Source: Dehalococcoidia bacterium
GTDB lineage: Bacteria; Chloroflexota; Dehalococcoidia; Lucifugimonadales; UBA3495
DNA length: 64,000 nucleotides
Direction: 5' to 3'
Assembly (NCBI GenBank): GCA_964291335.2
Contig: OZ219748.1
Span: 683,711 to 747,710, forward strand
The position numbers and the translations under genes were made by a program. Under the pieces are notes generated by a model. The model was not told the DNA's origin. It saw nothing but the letters and a program-made list of their open reading frames with translations, and searched no databases. Below are positions 35,155 to 43,703 of the stretch, piece after piece. How positions within the stretch are numbered: position 1 is the stretch's first letter; every line of letters starts with the position of its first letter.

Positions 35155-35337
35155 CTAACGGAAGCAGGGTAGTTGTTTCATTCTCACGGGGCGATACAGT
35201 GGGGGGAACTCGTGCCGCGTCTGGCCGTCCGGTTCAAGCCCGGTACGCTTCTGGTGGCAGCATCCCCATTGCTTGAAGAAAAAGTCGATGCCTTGCGTGA
35301 CGCATTGGTCGCTTATGTCCCGCCCCCACTCTGCCAC
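35155..35337 (-). pseudogene. C-terminal fragment of a phage Gp37/Gp68-type (DUF5131) gene
   Basis: ISDQCVTQGIDFFFKQWG...GLEPDGQTRHEFP matches the conserved C-terminal FFFKQWG...LDGR.W.E.P region of that family. The N-terminal ~200 aa are absent. Confidence 0.5.
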
Positions 35338-35394
35338 GACCGGGCGGGCGTCCGGCCCTGACCCGCCGCCGGCGCGGTGGGTGGGCCGGGTGAA

Positions 35395-36165
35395 CTACAC
35401 GGTAGCAAGTCGCCTAATATCCTGTTTTCCCTTATCACAGAATTCACTCAGCGCCGAATACTGGGTATCTGCGTTGTTTGTAAGGTAACGCCTTTCCCTG
35501 ATGCCCAGCGCCTCCATGTTTTCGTGGACTACCAGACTTATGAATGGCAGTTTGGCTTTCTGAAACTCCAGCAAGGCTATGGCTACATTCTTGGCCTTGT
35601 CATTGCCCAGAACCCCGAACAGATAGAAGTTACGCTGGTTGTGTGTCAGCTGCCAATCCACACCAATCAGGTAGTCCGCAACCGGATACTGGTCGGCAAG
35701 CGGCTGGTATTCCGTCAAGTCGGAGGTAATATATGCTTTCAGGTCATCGTAAAATGCGCTGTGGACAACCTCCCTTCTCCAGAATCGCATATTGCACACT
35801 TTTTGCACACAGCCGGCAAATTGCAGAATGCCCTCTTGCAGCATATTGAGGGGTATGTCCAAATAGAGATTGTCATCGTCGTTCCGGATTCCGTTGTTAA
35901 TCAGAATGCTGTCGAAGACACGACGCCTGGTGTCGGTGTTTATATCGAAGGTGTATGAAAGGCGCATCAGCGTCATTCCGAAATCGCAGACGCGGATATA
36001 ATCTTCACCGCAAGGGCTTTCCTGAAGGTAAATGTCCACCATGTCGGCATCTTCGTGAAGTATGGGAAGGATTAGCTGGTACTTTCCGGGGCGGCGCTCG
36101 TATATATCCAGCACCAAATTTTGCGCCGGCTCAAGGGAAGCTCTGATTTTAGCAAGATCCATCAA
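35395..36165 (-). CDS. Hypothetical protein (256 aa), last gene of the helicase-methylase operon
   Basis: Overlaps the upstream 173-aa ORF by 17 nt. It is visibly more AT-rich than its flanks. I have a faint recollection of DUF1828-type proteins, which I cannot substantiate. Confidence 0.55.
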   Translation of the reverse strand: MMDLAKIRASLEPAQNLVLDIYERRPGKYQLILPILHEDADMVDIYLQESPCGEDYIRVCDFGMTLMRLSYTFDINTDTRRRVFDSILINNGIRNDDDNLYLDIPLNMLQEGILQFAGCVQKVCNMRFWRREVVHSAFYDDLKAYITSDLTEYQPLADQYPVADYLIGVDWQLTHNQRNFYLFGVLGNDKAKNVAIALLEFQKAKLPFISLVVHENMEALGIRERRYLTNNADTQYSALSEFCDKGKQDIRRLATV

Positions 36166-36670
36166 AGAGCCTCCCTTGCAGCATTTCTGGGAAATGATCC
36201 GCGGAATTGGTTATGTTCGCATCGGCAAAGAAAACGCGCAATGCCTGCCCGAAAGTAGCATAGCGATCCGTAATTTCCCGCTTCTTTTCTGGAGGCTGAA
36301 TGCTGCCGGATCCGAGCTCCCCGGCAGTAATTCGGTGGATATGTGGTCTGGCATAATGTCCGTCCAGATGCCGGCCACTCTCGCCGTGGGGGCCGTTATA
36401 GCGAACCAGCGTGATGGTTCCCAAACTGCTTTCGTTGGTTTGATACTGTAAACCAAGCGAGAAATTTTCGATGAACTCGGTATTCTGGCGGATGAAAATG
36501 GTGAAAGCAGCGGCAGTGGAATCGCACGCTGGCATGTCGTTCAGTATCAGGTTGCAGCGTCTTTGCCGCTTTTCCTCTCGGTAGCCCTGATCAGGGTTCT
36601 TTTTGACTATGATTTTGCGGCAGGTTATTAAATCGTGAATTTGCTGGTCGGTCAGCACAAGCGCTCCCAT
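36149..36670 (-). CDS. Hypothetical protein (173 aa)
   Basis: Starts 65 nt downstream of the methyltransferase stop on the same strand. No recognisable motif. Confidence 0.5.
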   Translation of the reverse strand: MGALVLTDQQIHDLITCRKIIVKKNPDQGYREEKRQRRCNLILNDMPACDSTAAAFTIFIRQNTEFIENFSLGLQYQTNESSLGTITLVRYNGPHGESGRHLDGHYARPHIHRITAGELGSGSIQPPEKKREITDRYATFGQALRVFFADANITNSADHFPEMLQGRLFDGSC

Positions 36671-36735
36671 ACGCGATCAGCTTGTAAGTCAGGTCATTTT
36701 ATCATGCCTTGCGTTGTCGCTGCCCTCCGGCCTCC

Positions 36736-39700
36736 TCACGCAGAGGGTGAGTGCCTGGCTTTGAGACTCCCGGCTTTGTTCAGCCGGGTGGTTACCAGCT
36801 CCACTACCCCTTCATATACTGCGTCCCGTTCCCCTTGGGTCAGGCCCAGGGCATCGAATACCATTGCATCTATCTGCCGCCGGGCTGGTGAGGGCTTCAG
36901 CACATCCCAGTCGGTTTCCTTGAAAAGGGCGGCGTCAAAAATCGCTAAGCGATTTTTGACGCCGCCCGGATTCGCTATATCTGGCTCAGGCAGTAACTCT
37001 GGTTTCACGATAGCAAGGTTCCCGGTTTCATAGGTTTGAATCTCCAATACGCCTTGCCCGAAATTTGACCTGCTTTCGGTGTTCAACATTAGCTGGAAAA
37101 GCGTTGAGTTAACTGCTACGCACAGCTTTACTACGGAAACCCTACCGGCAACCGGCATTACCTGAAAATTATCACTGAACAGGGATCCCGTTACTATCAG
37201 AAAAGTACGAGCGGTAGTATTGACAAACTTATTCATCCCTAGATAGACATTGCCCCGTTCCCCCAAGTCATACCAACGCTGACGAGAATTGGTGCTGGCG
37301 CGTGTATGGTAGCCCTGCGCTTCACCCTGCCGGATGTAGGCTAATGCGCCGGTTCCGGCCAGTTCCCGCTTCTCCCGGTGGCACATGAACAGGCGTTTGG
37401 GGAGGCTTTCCGGGTCAATCAGCAGGGCGCGGGATTCCTGGGGCGTGGTCATTGCCGGGCGGCAGTATTCCGGTTCGATGCTGAACTCAGCAATGCGTTC
37501 TGGCGTCAGATAAAAGAAAGCATTTGCTCCAGTCTTAATGCCAAACCGCACCGAGGCCACGTCGCCCAGCCTTGCCAGTTTGCCACTGCACCGGTTCAGG
37601 ATGTGGTGGTAAATATCCGGCGCGCGCAGGAACTTGCCACCCCACTTATCGCCGACATATTTGCCGTCGGCCCGTCCGCCGTTCAGCAAGGCGGCCCGGG
37701 TTCGGGCAATTTCCCGCCGCTGCCCGGCGTCGGCCAGGGCGGTTGCGAAGTCGGCCCGCAAGGAAACAAACCGGGTCAAATCCTGACCGTTCTGGTCGGC
37801 CCGGTCGGTTTTGCGCAGGATGCTGATGATGGTGTTGATATCGGCGGTAGCGAACTGCCGTTCAATGGCGCTTTCGTAAATGGCCTGGATATGGGCGTGG
37901 CGCAGCAGGTACTCCTGCAATTTTGCGCCGTAGCCTACGTCCAGCCAGCTGTTAGAGCAGACGAAGACGTGCATTCCGCCGTCGCGGAGCAGTTCCAGTC
38001 CGCGGGCATAGAAGTAGCAGTATAAATCGGAACGAGCGGTAACGGCGTCGTTATACTGTTTGACCAGAGTGTCTTTGTAAGCTTTGGGGGTGATTCCTTC
38101 CTGGCGCACATACGGCGGGTTGCCGATAACCACGTCAAACCCATCGGCCACCCCGAACATATACTTGGCGTCGAACCAGTCGGCGGCGCTTGCGTTCTGG
38201 TCAAAGGGGGCCCAATCGGCCAACTGGTCGGCGGAAGCGGCGGGGAAACCCACGGCTTGCAGCACGGCGGCCAGTTGCCGGCGCAGCTCGGCATCCCGGC
38301 GGCGGCAGTCCAGTTTATCGGCCCGGTTTTTGGCGTGGAAGTACCGTTCACGGTTGGCGGCCAGGTCAGCTTCCAGTCTTTGCACCTTGTCAGTTTGACC
38401 GAGCGGCATCTGGGGCGGTTTTTCCAGTTTGCGCAGCGTGTCGGCAGCCACGAACTTCGTTTCCAGGTTGGGCAGGGGCCGGATGCCGTAGTTATCCGCC
38501 GGGTCGTCATTGGGCTGCTGCTCAATGGCGAGGGAGATGAAGAAGCGCAGTTTGGCAATCTGGGCAGCGATGGGCTGGCGGTCCACGCCGTAGATGCTGT
38601 TCTGGATGAGGTACAGCTTGCGCCCGAAGTCGGATTCGCGGTACTGCTCGAAGGTGCGGCTGATTTCCGCCAGGGCGTTCTCCCGTTCTTCCGGGCGGGA
38701 AACCTGGAAGGCATCGGTGGCGCGCTGGCCGGCCAGTTCCCGCTGCAAGGCCTCCCAAAGCTGGTTGCCGTCGTCCAGCCGGCTCAGGGCCAGGGTGAGC
38801 TTGTGCAGAACTCCCATCGGGAAGGCGCCGGAGCCGACGGCCGGGTCCAGAACTTTGAGGCCGGCAATGGCTCGGACAATGGCCTCCCGTTCCGACGGGG
38901 TGAACCGGGCCCCGGCGTCGGCAAAGGCATAATCAAGCAGGCAGCGCAGCCGCTCCTGCCAATGGTCGAGGTCGCCGTCATCGGCCGACGCCTTTTGCGC
39001 CAGCGTGGCGACGAGGGCCTCATCCACCATATAGTCCACCACGGCGCGGGGCGTGTAGTAGGAGCCGGTTTCCTTGCGGGCGGTAAGCTGCGTTTCCGGG
39101 TTGACGGCGGCCAGCAGGTTCTCGAAGACCTTGCCCAGCAGTTCGGGGTCCAGGGCCACTTCCTGCTCCGTCGGCGTGTTCTCCTCCACGGTGAACTTGT
39201 AGCGGTCGAACAGGTCAATCAGACCGGGGTTGCTGGCGCCGCCGCTGAAGAAGAGGCGATTGGGGATGCTCAACCGGCTACCCTGCTGCGGGTTGTCGGT
39301 AAAGCAGTCGATGCGATAGCCGCCGTCCCTGGTGGCTTCAAAACTGTCCAGGCAATCGAACAGCCCGCCGTTGATGAAGGGCGTTTTGCGGAACAACGCC
39401 AGCAGCGCGTCCGGGTCGGCCATTTCCCGGCGGTAGCGGTAGCAGGAAAAGTCCCGATGGGTTGAGTTTTTACCGGCGCTGAACATCCTGCGGTCAATCC
39501 CGGTGTTCAGGGTGGCGAAGAAAAGGTTTTGCAGCACGGCGCGGTAGTAGGAATCGCCATTGTCCCGGTCGTAGTCTTTAAGCAGCTGCGCCACCCGGTT
39601 TTCGATGAACAGGTCTTCGGACACCAGCCGTTTCTCTTTGATGAACCAGACGAACATCAGGCGGGTGATGAGGCGGATAACGTGTTCCTCGGCCGGCTGC

Positions 39701-40470
39701 GTCCTGGCCTGGTCGGTAGGGAACCTGGCGGTTCTGACGGCATGCTCAAACCATCGGAATAGTTCGCGGTAGAAACTGCGGTTCAGTTCCTCGGTATCCA
39801 GGGCGGCCAGCCAGGCTTCCAGCAGGCCGTCGAAGTTGCGGGGTTTGCCGTGATTATCCATCCAGCACAACCGTTCCGGCAGGGACAGCTCGGCCAGGAT
39901 GTCCTGGTGGGCGCGGTGCGGGTTGACAGGATCGATTTCGCGGATGATGGACACGCTGCCCAGCACATCGCGCTCCGGGTCCCGCCGGTTGGGCCGGCGG
40001 TGGACAAAGGCGAGGGAGATACGGTTGGCGGCGGTGCGGAACAGTACGACCATCGGTATCGGGAAGCGCCGGTTCAGTTCACGGGTGAAAGCGGCGTACC
40101 GGGCTCGGGAGTAGGCGCTGCCGCGCAGCTGCACGGCGGCGAACAGGAAGCTGCGGGCGTTGCTGTCGTCAAAGCCGGCGGCATCCGGCAGCGATTGCCG
40201 GCCTCCCGCCTGAATTTCCTCGCTGGTGAACTGGAACAGAACCTGAACCGACTTCGCATTGTCCAGGAACACCTGCTCCGACTGCGTGCCGGGATTGGCG
40301 GCCGGGAAGCGCCGGGTGAAGTCGCCGGCATTCCCGGATTGACCGGGCAGCGTCCGCTCGCTCCGGTAGCCGCAAACAGCCAGCAGATTGGCAGCTGCCG
40401 CTGCCAGGTCGCGGTCAACCATTGCCGCCAGGGCATCGCAGATAGCGTTTCTGACGTTGGTAGCGCTCAT
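36736..40470 (-). CDS. Large gamma-class N6-adenine DNA methyltransferase with C-terminal specificity domain (Eco57I/PglX/Type IIG-like)
   Basis: 1244 aa. Motifs: GSYYTPRAVVDYMV, motif I LDPAVGSGAFP, motif IV VIGNPPYV, and the TaqI-like C-terminal FGIKTGANAFFYL. Its ATG overlaps the helicase stop (ATGA). Confidence 0.85.
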   Translation of the reverse strand: MSATNVRNAICDALAAMVDRDLAAAAANLLAVCGYRSERTLPGQSGNAGDFTRRFPAANPGTQSEQVFLDNAKSVQVLFQFTSEEIQAGGRQSLPDAAGFDDSNARSFLFAAVQLRGSAYSRARYAAFTRELNRRFPIPMVVLFRTAANRISLAFVHRRPNRRDPERDVLGSVSIIREIDPVNPHRAHQDILAELSLPERLCWMDNHGKPRNFDGLLEAWLAALDTEELNRSFYRELFRWFEHAVRTARFPTDQARTQPAEEHVIRLITRLMFVWFIKEKRLVSEDLFIENRVAQLLKDYDRDNGDSYYRAVLQNLFFATLNTGIDRRMFSAGKNSTHRDFSCYRYRREMADPDALLALFRKTPFINGGLFDCLDSFEATRDGGYRIDCFTDNPQQGSRLSIPNRLFFSGGASNPGLIDLFDRYKFTVEENTPTEQEVALDPELLGKVFENLLAAVNPETQLTARKETGSYYTPRAVVDYMVDEALVATLAQKASADDGDLDHWQERLRCLLDYAFADAGARFTPSEREAIVRAIAGLKVLDPAVGSGAFPMGVLHKLTLALSRLDDGNQLWEALQRELAGQRATDAFQVSRPEERENALAEISRTFEQYRESDFGRKLYLIQNSIYGVDRQPIAAQIAKLRFFISLAIEQQPNDDPADNYGIRPLPNLETKFVAADTLRKLEKPPQMPLGQTDKVQRLEADLAANRERYFHAKNRADKLDCRRRDAELRRQLAAVLQAVGFPAASADQLADWAPFDQNASAADWFDAKYMFGVADGFDVVIGNPPYVRQEGITPKAYKDTLVKQYNDAVTARSDLYCYFYARGLELLRDGGMHVFVCSNSWLDVGYGAKLQEYLLRHAHIQAIYESAIERQFATADINTIISILRKTDRADQNGQDLTRFVSLRADFATALADAGQRREIARTRAALLNGGRADGKYVGDKWGGKFLRAPDIYHHILNRCSGKLARLGDVASVRFGIKTGANAFFYLTPERIAEFSIEPEYCRPAMTTPQESRALLIDPESLPKRLFMCHREKRELAGTGALAYIRQGEAQGYHTRASTNSRQRWYDLGERGNVYLGMNKFVNTTARTFLIVTGSLFSDNFQVMPVAGRVSVVKLCVAVNSTLFQLMLNTESRSNFGQGVLEIQTYETGNLAIVKPELLPEPDIANPGGVKNRLAIFDAALFKETDWDVLKPSPARRQIDAMVFDALGLTQGERDAVYEGVVELVTTRLNKAGSLKARHSPSA

Positions 40471-43400
40471 TTCCTCTCCTTGATGACCAGCCAGGTTATC
40501 AGTTCGAAGTCAGTGTTGTCGCCGGGGGATTCGGAGGCTTTGGGCAGCACGAAGTCGCGCCCGCTGCCCAGGCCTTGCGTTTGTACGGCAAAGTGGCTCT
40601 GCCGGATGTGGGCGATGGCGTCAGTGAGCAGTTTATTATAGCGCGCCATATTACGGCCCTGGTCGGTTTCGCGGTCAAAACGGTCGCACAGTTCGGTAAT
40701 GGGGTGGCTTTCCCCGACGGCGGCCGCTTCGAACACGGTCAGCGCCTGCCGCGCGTTGGCGCAACCGTAACGGATACTGCCGTTATCGTGCAGATAGACA
40801 AAGTAGAAGGGGTGTACCGGGCTGGCGGCCTGCTGGCGTGAACCGACATCGCCGGCGTTGCGCTGGCGCAGGCAGAAGAGTACGCCGGGTTGAATGTCGG
40901 CGCCCGGCCCGTCGCCGGCGACCGCGTACACGCCGGGCGGCATGGCTTCCAGGGCGTCTTTGTTGGCCTCCAGATAGCGCAGCAGCTGGGTCAAAAAATG
41001 GTCCAAGGTGAAGTCGCCCAAGGCCGGCCCGTCGTTCAGGTCTTCGAGGTCAAGGACTTCTTCGCGCAGTCTGAGCAGCTGCTCATCGCGAAAGTTCAGT
41101 TCCAGTTGGGCGTCTTCCTCCGTGAACGGGTCTTCGTCGCCACTGGCGGCCAGGTCGGCCAGCGCCATCCGCGCCTGCACCCGGCTCTCCAGTTTCAGGT
41201 ACACGTCCATATCCGCCGTGGGCCAGTAGTTGAGCATCCGCACCGATTTGTTGCGGCTCCCGATGCGGTCAATGCGCCCGAACCGCTGGATGATTCGCAC
41301 CGGGTTCCAGTGAATGTCATAGTTGATCACCGTATCGCAGTCTTGCAGGTTCTGGCCCTCGGAAATGCAGTCGGTGGCAATCAGCAGGTCGATGTCGGCG
41401 TTGGCGCCGGCGCTGCCGCGGTTGCGGGCCACGGGAGCGAAATTGCTCAGGATGGCATTAAAGTTGTTGTCGCCGACGGCGGTGCGGGTTTCGTCCCCGG
41501 AAACCATTGCCATATTGATGTCCAGCTCTTTGGCCAGGCCGGAAAGGTTGTCGTACAGGTACAACGCCGTGTCCTTGAAGGTAGTGAACACCAGCAGCTT
41601 GCGGTTGGGGCTGCCGTCCTGGTCGATAGCAGGGTTCCGGGCCTTGTCGCGGACGGCCTGCTTGATTTCGCACAGCTTGCCGTCCCGTTCCGGGGTGATG
41701 GCAGCGACTTGCTGCCTTACCCTCTCCAGGGTAGATTTGTCCGCCTGCAAATCAGCCTGCCAGCGAGCCACGTCCAGTTCCGCCAGATGGTAGGCCTGGC
41801 GGCGCCCGCCGACGAAGAATTCTTCGTCTTCCTCATCTGCGTCGGGTCGAGTATCCGTCTCCGTTGCTTCCAGGTTAGCCAATCCGCCCGGTTCATAGCG
41901 CTCAATCTTGTCCAGCAGGCGGTCAATCTTGTCGATGGTGCGCTTCAGGGTCAGCGCCAGGGACCCGGGGGAGCTTTCCAGCCGTTTGAGGAAGTTGGTT
42001 CGCATCATCCCGACCAGAAAACGCTCGCTGTCCCGCTGGTTGAAGTTCTGCCGCTGGCGGGTTTCGGCCAGCTTTTGCAGCCGCGCCGGATCGGTTACGT
42101 ACTCGCTGGGCTGGTACACGGACAGCTTGAACTGACCGATGCGCTCGGCCGTATCCTGATAGGAGAGTTCGCCCTGCAAGTCCGTCTGCGGGTGGCGGTT
42201 CGTTGGGTTTTCCCGCCGGGGGAACTGCCCGATGCGTTCCATTTCGGCAGCGTAGAATTGCTCAATCTGCCGCCGCGAACGCGAGATTGACACGCCATCC
42301 AGCAAACGGAGGAAGTCGGCGCCCAGCCTTTCCAGCAGTTGCGCCTTGCTGCGGCGGCTCCGGTTGGCCTGTTCGGTTTCCCACTGCTTGAACACTCGTT
42401 GGGCTGCCGCCATCACGTTGCGGATGCTGCCTACGCCCAAGCTTGCGCGGAAAGCGCCTTCCCGCCCCTCGGTCATCAGGTAAATCTGGTTTCTCAGGTC
42501 AATCAGCGAGGTATTCACCGGCGTCGCCGACAGCAGCAAAACCCTGGTCCTGGCGCCAGCCCTGATTACTTCGTCCAGCAGACGCCGGTAGCGTTGTCCT
42601 CCGTCGTTGCGGAAATTGTGCGACTCGTCGATAACCACCAGGTCGTAGTTCTGCCAGTTAAAGTTCGCCAGGTTTATGCCGCCCGACGCGCCGGAGTTCC
42701 GGGACAGATCGGTGTGCGCCAGCACAGTGAAGCCGAAACGGTCTTCCGGAAACGGGTTCTGCCGGTGGCCGTAGATGGCCGGATAGAGCGACCAGTTTTC
42801 GAACAGCTTGCGCGGGCACAGCACCAGCGCCCGCTGGTTGCGCAGTTCAAAGTACCTGATTACCGCCAGAGCGGTGTAGGTTTTGCCCAAACCCACACTG
42901 TCGGCCAGGATACAGCCGTTGTGGGCTAACAGCTTGGCGATGGCGCTTTTCGCGCCGTCCTTCTGGAATTCGTAAAGTGCGTTCCAGACCTGGCTGTCCA
43001 TAAAGCCGGTCGCGGTGGCTGCCGCGTCGCCAGCCAATCGGGCATCAATGTCTTTACGGAACAGTTCATACAGTGTCCGGTAATAGATGGCCTCCGGTGC
43101 ATAGTCGCCGCCAAGGCGCTTCAGGGCGTCCAGCACCTCCTGCTTCACGTCCCTGGTGCGCCGTCCGTCGCTCCATAGTCGGTTGAACCAGTCCAGCAAT
43201 TCGGCGAGCGTATCCGCATCTTCAGTAGCCAGATTGATTTCCAGGTTGGGCTGGTCGTTGCCGCCCAGGCCGCGTTTGGTGAAGTTGGAGCTCCCGACAA
43301 CTCCGGTTGCGCTGTCCGCCGACTGGGTGAGGTACATCTTGCCGTGCAGGAAGTTAGCGCGGCTGACCGAGCGGACGGCTACGCTGTCGCGACTCACCCA

Positions 43401-43703
43401 GTCGGCGCACTGCCTGGCCAGGGCCTTCTGCTGCAGGGTATGGTTGGGCGCCAAGCCCCGCTCGGTCAGCTCGAATGACCTGGGGTCGCTGGCGCCGGGG
43501 TCAAGCTCATCTACCGACGTTGGGTCGCCGAAAAGGAAGCGGACGCTGCCAACCCGGGCCAACTCCTCCGCCAGCAGTTCGTAGCCGTAGATTGTGATGT
43601 ACGCCGAGGCCAGGCTGAAGGTATCAGCGTTGCGCAGGCTGCGACGCAGGTGGTCGGCGACGGTGGCGGCCTGGTTGTCCAGTATGCGGTTTGGTAACGG
43701 CAT
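40467..43703 (-). CDS. PLD-family (HKD) nuclease domain fused to an SNF2-type helicase
   Basis: 1078 aa. N-terminal HKD motif FLHGKMYL...VVGSSNFT. Helicase motifs ADSVGLGKTYTAL, VVIDESHNFRN and QRFGRIDRIGS. Confidence 0.85.
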   Translation of the reverse strand: MPLPNRILDNQAATVADHLRRSLRNADTFSLASAYITIYGYELLAEELARVGSVRFLFGDPTSVDELDPGASDPRSFELTERGLAPNHTLQQKALARQCADWVSRDSVAVRSVSRANFLHGKMYLTQSADSATGVVGSSNFTKRGLGGNDQPNLEINLATEDADTLAELLDWFNRLWSDGRRTRDVKQEVLDALKRLGGDYAPEAIYYRTLYELFRKDIDARLAGDAAATATGFMDSQVWNALYEFQKDGAKSAIAKLLAHNGCILADSVGLGKTYTALAVIRYFELRNQRALVLCPRKLFENWSLYPAIYGHRQNPFPEDRFGFTVLAHTDLSRNSGASGGINLANFNWQNYDLVVIDESHNFRNDGGQRYRRLLDEVIRAGARTRVLLLSATPVNTSLIDLRNQIYLMTEGREGAFRASLGVGSIRNVMAAAQRVFKQWETEQANRSRRSKAQLLERLGADFLRLLDGVSISRSRRQIEQFYAAEMERIGQFPRRENPTNRHPQTDLQGELSYQDTAERIGQFKLSVYQPSEYVTDPARLQKLAETRQRQNFNQRDSERFLVGMMRTNFLKRLESSPGSLALTLKRTIDKIDRLLDKIERYEPGGLANLEATETDTRPDADEEDEEFFVGGRRQAYHLAELDVARWQADLQADKSTLERVRQQVAAITPERDGKLCEIKQAVRDKARNPAIDQDGSPNRKLLVFTTFKDTALYLYDNLSGLAKELDINMAMVSGDETRTAVGDNNFNAILSNFAPVARNRGSAGANADIDLLIATDCISEGQNLQDCDTVINYDIHWNPVRIIQRFGRIDRIGSRNKSVRMLNYWPTADMDVYLKLESRVQARMALADLAASGDEDPFTEEDAQLELNFRDEQLLRLREEVLDLEDLNDGPALGDFTLDHFLTQLLRYLEANKDALEAMPPGVYAVAGDGPGADIQPGVLFCLRQRNAGDVGSRQQAASPVHPFYFVYLHDNGSIRYGCANARQALTVFEAAAVGESHPITELCDRFDRETDQGRNMARYNKLLTDAIAHIRQSHFAVQTQGLGSGRDFVLPKASESPGDNTDFELITWLVIKERK

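Follow-up and report, generated by a model that had tools for sequence, protein, structure and literature searches.

Within a window of 64,000 nucleotides (nt) from the genome of a Dehalococcoidia bacterium (contig OZ219748.1), which is the whole stretch of DNA that was analyzed and to which all positions refer, two small genes lie next to each other on the minus strand, downstream of a DNA methyltransferase gene. Gene A (36149..36670) encodes a small protein of the DUF6978 family, and gene B (35395..36162) encodes a protein in which DUF1828 is joined to a divergent, DUF1829-like domain at the C-terminus. The window is a dense defense island, containing a type I-C CRISPR-Cas system with cas3, a helicase-methylase module, and a further PLD/SNF2 helicase. 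The family membership of the pair, the pairing of its genes, its mobility, its genomic contexts, and the asymmetric decay of gene A are documented below. We favor, with slightly better than even confidence, the reading that the pair works as a toxin-antitoxin-type abortive-infection system, in which A would be the toxin and B its neutralizing and sensing partner, serving as a defense or addiction module. A toxin/antitoxin or abortive-infection pair had already been suggested by an earlier reading of the DNA by eye (hereafter the sequence-only reading), and it is still the best account of a function that we infer from genomic patterns.

Both minus-strand open reading frames (ORFs) of that reading, at 36149-36670 and 35395-36165, were confirmed from their translations and the DNA sequence. 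From ATG 36670, the ORF of gene A encodes 173 amino acids (aa); its true start is probably GTG 36658, giving 169 aa, as a Shine-Dalgarno-like GGGAG lies ahead of it at 36668-36664 and the protein would then open with MLTDQQ, matching its homologs and its own database entry (P0123). Gene B most likely starts at ATG 36162 and not at TTG 36165, with GGGAGG at 36175-36170, 7 nt 5' of this ATG; the resulting 255 aa agree with the length of the database entry for gene B of the same genome (P0003). Thus, each gene has its own Shine-Dalgarno sequence. With these starts, the two intervals given by the sequence-only reading need correction: the TAA stop of gene A (36151-36149) overlaps the start of gene B by 14 nt rather than 17 nt, and the distance from the methylase stop to the GTG of gene A is 77 nt rather than 65 nt.

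The gene directly upstream of the pair encodes an Eco57I-type N6-adenine methyltransferase of 1244 aa (36736..40470, minus strand; Pfam Eco57I, E = 1.1e-33; type IIG-like according to PADLOC). It is translationally coupled to a gene for a PLD-nuclease / SNF2 helicase of 1078 aa (40467..43703, minus strand), which matches Pfam PLDc_2, SNF2-rel_dom, and Helicase_C as well as PADLOC C3a139 'HKD+Snf2' (E = 3e-108). No sigma-70-type promoter was found on the minus strand in the gap before gene A. Just 3' of the gene B stop, a repeat search revealed a GC-rich imperfect palindrome (inverted repeat I1, 35352..35389), which may form a transcript-end hairpin; it is not followed by a T-run, and no terminator-like sites were called on the minus strand.

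That the pair is AT-richer than its surroundings had been judged by eye and was borne out by a GC profile. Its GC content of 0.502, compared to a genome mean of 0.609 (standard deviation 0.04), falls within the lowest 1.1% of 1.3-kb windows, and its GC content at third codon positions (GC3) is 0.58-0.60, whereas values of 0.75-0.79 apply to the genes for the methylase and the helicases and to cas3. The 3' end of the methylase gene (36736-37400, 666 nt) has a GC3 of 0.58, like the pair, while that of the remainder of the gene is 0.79. This low-GC3 tract encodes the C-terminal, probably target-recognition, part of the methylase, which may have arrived with the pair or have been swapped separately. 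There was no support for a common origin of this low-GC 3' end and those at other methylase-pair loci, since only the methylase of locus L018 is similar (26% over the whole length).

On the downstream side, the cassette ends at a remnant of the C-terminal part of what was a DUF5131 (phage Gp37/Gp68) gene (35155..35373, minus strand; Pfam PF07505, E = 2.5e-8, model positions 193-243). In a whole-genome search, only positions 180-243 of the 243-position model were left, at window positions 35203-35373, and intact DUF5131 copies were found elsewhere in the same genome. The edge of the remnant lies ~20 nt from the gene B stop, in agreement with the truncated Gp37/Gp68 fragment that the sequence-only reading had seen at the end of the cassette, and it is the downstream edge of the inserted DNA. 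Flanking repeats that could be a sign of transposition were limited to an 11-nt direct repeat at about chance level: ATGCCTTGCGT occurs in exact copies at 35288-35298, within the DUF5131 remnant, and at 36704-36714, in the gap before gene A. It thereby brackets the pair; ~0.4 such repeats are expected by chance, and it may mean nothing.

Family membership and predicted structures of the two proteins

Gene B matches DUF1828 (PF08861) over residues 34-122 with E = 7e-14 and 52.3 bits, compared to a cut-off of 22, so that a vague impression of DUF1828 in the sequence-only reading, which had counted 256 aa for this protein, proved correct. It also matches component B of the PADLOC candidate PDC-M24 (PDC-M24B; PDLC04539, E = 8.7e-14; PDLC04540, E = 1.2e-6) as well as phrog_5059 (E = 7.5e-21). 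No direct Pfam match to DUF1829 (PF08862) was obtained for the C-terminal half. When the profile of the gene B subfamily was aligned by hhalign with 20 DUF1828-DUF1829 proteins of the same class, of which 7 match PF08862, the alignment covered residues 1-229 with a probability of 98.9% and E = 1.3e-17. The extent of this alignment, together with the 7 PF08862 matches, argues that the C-terminal domain is a divergent DUF1829 and that gene B has the DUF1828-DUF1829 architecture in a divergent form.

Gene A matches phrog_27326 (E = 2.7e-19) and has 353 homologs at 54-64% identity, many of which are annotated as PF22398 (DUF6978). Furthermore, three temperate Pseudomonas phages (phage 5371 and relatives) carry a pair that is ~34% identical to both window proteins, with gene A reaching the phage 5371 protein in tblastn at E = 6e-13. 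The phage 5371 pair matches PDC-M24A (1.2e-8), PDC-M24B (1.3e-13), DUF6978 (7e-12, above the cut-off), and DUF1828, and phage and viral homologs of gene A reach 46 bits against DUF6978. Since the phage pair is homologous to the window pair and matches both PDC-M24 models, the cassette is best regarded as a divergent subfamily of PDC-M24, and hence as no undescribed system. A search of the pair against NCBIfam gave no matches.

PADLOC lists PDC-M24, with an A and a B component, as an untested phage-defense candidate (Payne et al., bioRxiv 10.1101/2024.01.29.577857). Its prediction is based on "guilt by embedding"; according to the authors of the PDC set, its 145 predicted candidates go back to genes that were found lodged within BREX, DISARM, or type I restriction systems (PMC11811056). 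Like the window pair, PDC-M24 comprises a small DUF6978 protein followed by a ~255-aa DUF1828 protein and also sits within restriction operons, whereas the window subfamily is divergent, tightly conserved, and found in Dehalococcoidia and many other, mostly uncultured, phyla. The suggestion of a novel system of unknown kind therefore did not hold: as far as profile matches can tell, the pair represents no new kind and appears to be a divergent member of this catalogued candidate.

The AlphaFold model of A (predicted local distance difference test, pLDDT, 85; predicted template modeling score, pTM, 0.83) combines seven antiparallel strands with one helix at the N-terminus and further helices at the C-terminus. 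A Foldseek search of this model against the PDB returned nothing significant (best E = 0.78), and in BFVD, a single uncharacterized phage protein was found (TM score 0.56-0.62), which is probably a family member. A p32-like and a START-like fold were both rejected, with TM scores of 0.2-0.3. A profile search of 1.84 billion representatives yielded 1,377 clusters (50% identity) for gene A, and the best 150 of these were all single-domain, without any domain fusion. Across 135 diverse representatives with a median identity of 32% to the window protein, residues K19, R61, S71, G73, R90, N92, G93, H95, H110, and H112 are 94-100% conserved. The invariant Arg/Asn/three-His center that they include looks catalytic or metal-binding. 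Motifs of the cupin, HNH, HIT, JAMM, SRA, and ADP-ribosyltransferase families were considered for A and dropped due to wrong spacing or fold and lack of search support.

For gene B, the AlphaFold model has two domains (pLDDT 80, pTM 0.50). Its Foldseek matches in the PDB, all with E > 0.01, resemble secretion chaperones for the N-terminal domain (DUF1828) and restriction endonucleases or Holliday-junction resolvases for the C-terminal domain. Invariant residues across the wider family lie mostly in DUF1828 (D38, D40, D60, G62, M66, and Y70), with F137 and F207 in addition. In the close subfamily, 49 columns of an alignment of 56 sequences show no variation at all, and column identity averages 74%. 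A restriction-endonuclease C-terminal domain was not supported, as K189, H213, E214, and other residues that are invariant in the subfamily vary across the wider family. No PDB chain was matched in searches with either protein sequence or with the profile of either family.

Among characterized proteins, A bears some, non-significant likeness to the validated toxin TumE (DUF6516, PF20126), which lowers protein synthesis and is neutralized by diverse unrelated partners (Durairaj et al., Nature 2023, PMC10584680). TumE has two helices packed on a seven-stranded antiparallel sheet and no PDB match (PMC10584680); A is likewise a small stand-alone protein of similar topology, without a PDB neighbor, and encoded bicistronically, as in TumE-TumA. 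The motif R-[YW]-D-N-x-x-H ... P-H-x-H of TumE compares with R-[YC]-N-G-x-H ... H-I-H in gene A. When A was aligned by hhalign with TumE proteins, which had been gathered from the protein collection as well as from genomes of Chloroflexota, the profiles were collinear over 127 columns with the motifs in register, at a probability of ~10% and a pairwise E of 0.003, compared to 0.12 for the reversed control. In contrast to TumE-TumA, the order is reversed here, with the presumed toxin first, and a DUF1828-DUF1829 protein takes the place of the RelB-like or helix-turn-helix (HTH) antitoxin. A may thus be a distant relative of TumE, which we treat as a lead and not as membership.

The C-terminal domain of gene B recalls DS-6 (HipAD), a validated two-gene defense system for which a toxin-antitoxin mechanism was hypothesized (DefensePredictor, Science 2026, PMC13092281). 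Its component DS-6B is a DUF1829 partner of a toxin-like HipA-type kinase and is predicted to bind the kinase and DNA (PMC13092281). In both cases, the non-toxin partner has a DUF1829 domain, in divergent form in gene B; DS-6, however, combines a HipA-type kinase with DUF3037, whereas the window pair combines DUF6978 with DUF1828.

Pairing, decay, and spread of the cassette

Gene B has 857 relatives in a large protein collection, the top ones of which are 62-71% identical and nearly all 254-263 aa long. The locus set used here comprises the best 80 of 262 loci, with one genome per species. These best 80 loci share 59-72% identity and span >12 phyla; their hosts include Dehalococcoidia, other Chloroflexota, Caldilineaceae, Spirochaetia, Latescibacterota, Binatia, Vicinamibacterales, and Bryobacterales as well as Limisphaerales, Longimicrobiales, Nitrospinales, Thermodesulfobacteriota, Tectimicrobiota, Arenicellales, and Owenweeksia. 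Gene A lies directly upstream of gene B in 72 of the 80 species-representative loci. In the 52 intact loci, the pairwise identity matrices of A and B are correlated (r = 0.70, a value reached by 0 of 2000 permutations), and therefore the two genes travel together.

A survey of the class (401 genomes) identified a B-family gene in 64 genomes and an A-family gene in 28. All A-family loci in these genomes (29/29) are directly upstream of a DUF1828 gene, so that the idea of homologs traveling as a pair held both here and in the 80 loci; in three genomes (G143, G360, and G384), the partner is a short DUF1828-only gene. Conversely, full-length B without A was found in 8 of the 80 loci and additionally in three genomes of the survey (G408, G124, and G243).

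The two genes also differ in their decay. Within the 80 loci, gene A is frameshifted in 12, truncated in 6, and absent from 8, while it is cut by the contig end in 2 further loci; gene B is intact in all 80 (broken or missing A 26/78, B 0/80; Fisher p = 8e-10). Besides single-base losses outside long homopolymers, deletions of 4 nt and of 7 nt are among the lesions, which therefore exceed mere read errors. The conserved columns of gene B are kept equally with or without an intact A (Mann-Whitney p = 0.25). A gene that is never alone and often broken, next to one that is always kept, is the pattern that would be expected of a toxin and its antitoxin. With respect to the genomic hallmarks of type II toxin-antitoxin systems, the evidence, which is genomic only, is that the toxin candidate never occurs without its partner, that orphan partners occur, and that the genes are bicistronic and coupled.

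As a separate observation, many independent lesions of gene A lie in or near the loop with the conserved His (model positions ~83-108), namely in L014 (the 4-nt deletion), L030 (the 7-nt deletion), L049, L060, L062, L063, and L089. In a Spirochaetia genome (L027:4665-5900, minus strand), a 411-aa gene on the opposite strand is located between a frameshifted A and an intact B; the pair was probably split by its insertion.

The GC content of the pair is below that of its flanks in almost every locus (typically 0.50 vs 0.60), and a close copy exists in only 2 of 24 sister genera of the window's own family. Its low GC content, its patchy presence within the family, and its 59-72% identity across >12 phyla support the horizontal acquisition of the cassette that the sequence-only reading had supposed. 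A search of 72,556 PLSDB plasmids did not detect the pair. Judged by name only, many of the host genomes appear to be metagenome bins from lineages that live in the sea, possibly in association with sponges (SAR202, Caldilineaceae, Latescibacterota, Tectimicrobiota, and Nitrospinales; examples are L013, L022, L029, L069, and L087), and a shared habitat could explain the spread across phyla at high identity.

Genomic neighborhoods of the pair

In a Pfam census of the 143 genes immediately adjoining the pair in 74 loci, families of restriction-modification systems ranked on top, with N6_Mtase (9), HsdM_N (8), N6_N4_Mtase (6), Methylase_S (4), and HNH (4), followed by Eco57I, Mrr_cat_2, ResIII, and PIN (3 each). 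Annotated representatives and profile propagation distinguished several types of operon, with the pair on the same strand as the operon. It is embedded in type I systems as hsdM-[A-B]-hsdS-hsdR (L026, L031, and others) and in type III-like systems as res-[A-B]-mod (L049 and L081), and it directly follows an Eco57I-type methylase in L018, L032, L061, and the window, or a methylase-HNH fusion in L055, L077, and L080. The order in L018 is methylase-[A-B]-PLD/SNF2 helicase, and this helicase resembles that of the window (E = 1e-66).

That homologs would be found beside restriction genes was thus confirmed for a part of the loci: restriction-modification genes lie within 6 kb of the pair in at least 31 of the 80 loci, compared to 11.7% of equal-sized windows in the genome of the window (binomial p = 5e-10, a test inflated by restriction-gene seeds that were partly drawn from the tested loci), and by these seeds 49 of the 80 loci have none at this distance.

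A second recurrent context is provided by prophages. In phage 5371 and its relatives as well as in two unrelated viral contigs (L097 and L100), the pair is located on the repressor strand, just after a cI-type repressor with HTH and peptidase S24 domains. These prophage pairs, which represent at least three prophage lineages, adjoin an integrase or a serine recombinase. Among the prophage and viral contexts is also L095, where the pair comes after a 1064-aa ResIII helicase.

When all flanking ORFs were clustered, a conserved third gene was rejected, since the largest clusters other than the pair itself cover no more than 13 of the 80 loci each; those large flanking clusters that are annotated consist of restriction-modification genes. 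As the pair is also seen in the immunity regions of prophages and in plain housekeeping surroundings, it is an autonomous cassette and no dedicated part of the helicase-methylase operon of the window. Hence, the proposal that the pair is an add-on to the restriction module was correct about the link, with restriction-modification genes being the commonest immediate neighbors and the pair embedded in several types of operon, and was not supported as to a dedicated role in one operon.

Besides these contexts, the pairs of L025/L001 (3185-5437), L012, L016, and L050 adjoin genes of the molybdopterin-dependent aldehyde oxidase / xanthine dehydrogenase family (by Pfam for the L025/L001 gene), and reading of the sequences points to the same molybdopterin-enzyme neighbors in two distant subfamilies (L108:873-3209 and L112:24-629). 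This adjacency may merely reflect the many paralogs of such enzymes in those genomes.

Candidate toxin-antitoxin function and alternative readings

If the pair is a toxin-antitoxin-type abortive-infection system, A would be a small enzyme-like effector with an invariant Arg/Asn/three-His center, and B would bind and restrain it via the DUF1828 domain, while the DUF1829 domain of B may bind DNA or sense the trigger. A phage cue or the loss of B would then free A and lead to a growth stop of the infected cell. A and B would be translationally coupled, and the methylase operon of the window probably includes them in its transcript; since the pair elsewhere is found in restriction operons or prophage repressor operons, it would be expressed where defense genes are. 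It is from the genomic patterns that we infer the toxicity of A, its neutralization by B, the trigger, and defense itself.

PDC-M24 is one of many defense candidates that are catalogued as predictions, and the A family alone comprises ~1,400 clusters. The family crosses >12 phyla at unusually high identity and occupies two places typical of defense genes. Moreover, the asymmetry between A and B gives a concrete hypothesis, with A as the toxin and B as the lock, for which the Arg/Asn/three-His center provides the residues to mutate. If true, this would mean either a new effector fold or an extension of the TumE superfamily into phage defense, as well as a role for DUF1828 and DUF1829. For the window alone, it would mean one more module in an already dense defense island.

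Several points weigh against this reading. Gene A itself scores 20 bits against DUF6978, under the cut-off of 29.6 (E = 9e-4 over the full model), and does not match the PDC-M24A model at E <= 1, so that its assignment to PDC-M24/DUF6978 appears to depend on transitive homology. The link to TumE is non-significant, with no match to PF20126 in the Pfam scan of A. Neither A nor B has a significant solved structural neighbor, so that any chemistry ascribed to them is putative; no functional work on DUF1828, DUF6978, PDC-M24, PF08861, or PF22398 was found in the literature. The choice of seeds inflates the enrichment of restriction genes, the same seeds leave 49 of the 80 loci without such genes within 6 kb, and several of the contexts are housekeeping-like. 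Finally, the persistence of B without A would fit a lingering or useful orphan antitoxin and, equally well, a function of B on its own.

A plain addiction module, which would stabilize mobile DNA such as restriction islands and prophages without an anti-phage role of its own, would likewise account for A never occurring without B and decaying while B persists, for the strong horizontal spread and persistently foreign composition, and for pairs in housekeeping contexts without nearby defense genes. However, the recurrent position in prophage repressor operons and restriction operons is the classic place of defense cargo, and although plasmids commonly carry addiction modules, the pair was not found in any of the 72,556 searched. 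Moreover, a defense role against phages has emerged for many toxin-antitoxin modules located at such sites as prophage repressor operons and restriction operons, which also counts against addiction as the sole role, and we consider it rather unlikely.

Improbable, and more so than plain addiction, is a PrrC-like guard or back-up that the methylase or restriction complex encoded next to it would keep silent until an anti-restriction protein of a phage puts this complex out of action. There is precedent in PrrC, the gene of which is embedded in a type I operon, and in operons of type I, of Eco57I type, and with methylase-HNH fusions, including that of the window, the pair comes immediately after the methylase gene. 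The type of helicase-methylase system seen in the window also adjoins the pair in L018, with the genes arranged differently. PrrC of EcoprrI and lambda RexAB are also alike in being small modules expressed with immunity genes, within hsdMSR or co-transcribed with cI, although they have no sequence or fold relation to the pair, PrrC being an ABC-ATPase anticodon nuclease and RexAB a sensor with an ion channel. Yet the restriction partners belong to at least four unrelated types, 49 of the 80 loci have no restriction genes nearby, and the prophage copies are without any; a cassette working in so many settings would be unlikely to depend on one host complex.

We attach as little weight to the idea that B is the working enzyme or effector, through an acidic DGD / DxG site in DUF1828 or a degenerate nuclease-like DUF1829, with A as a dispensable tuner or trigger. 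It would explain why all 80 loci have an intact B that is as well conserved in the absence of A as in its presence, why the B family is more than twice as common as the A family (64 vs 28 of 401 genomes), and why the close subfamily of 56 sequences is so uniform, with 49 invariant columns and 74% mean column identity. The weak fold matches of its C-terminal domain to restriction endonucleases and Holliday-junction resolvases point in the same direction, but they are non-significant (E > 0.01), and the subfamily invariants of this domain (K189, H213, E214, and others) are not conserved across the wider family. The sharper enzyme-like invariant center is that of A, and an accessory that is never alone yet often broken would resemble a costly toxin more than a tuner. 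A housekeeping or metabolic function unrelated to conflict, suggested by some metabolic neighbors such as molybdopterin oxidoreductases and a pantoate ligase, is highly unlikely in view of the patchy presence even within a family, the foreign composition, the cross-phylum spread, the carriage by prophages, and the lack of a conserved third gene.

More speculatively, and with a similarly low likelihood as the PrrC-like guard, DUF6978 could be a metal-dependent (three-His) effector of new fold, at most distantly related to TumE, and DUF1828 a portable lock, such that the pair would guard restriction systems generally, sensing anti-restriction proteins or damaged complexes and then stopping translation. 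If true, this would explain why restriction operons of four unrelated types have the pair embedded behind their methylase gene, and stand-alone phage DUF1828 domains could be explained as possible counter-locks.

Stand-alone DUF1828 proteins were observed. In the genome of the window, outside the window itself, a different cassette is repeated on both contigs (G000 C1:2660378-2662935, plus strand, and C2:54685-57181, minus strand), which by sequence reading consists of an MT-A70-like methylase, a macro-domain protein, a Uma2-like endonuclease, and then a stand-alone DUF1828 protein of 128 aa that is 41-45% identical to the N-terminal domain of gene B, with no A gene nearby. Furthermore, two viral contigs (L099:1677-2147 and L098:2-433) carry short DUF1828-only ORFs that are 43-47% identical to this domain; the ORF of L099 is not preceded by an A gene, and in L098 the contig end truncates the region ahead of the ORF. 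These viral ORFs could be phage-borne mimics of the lock.

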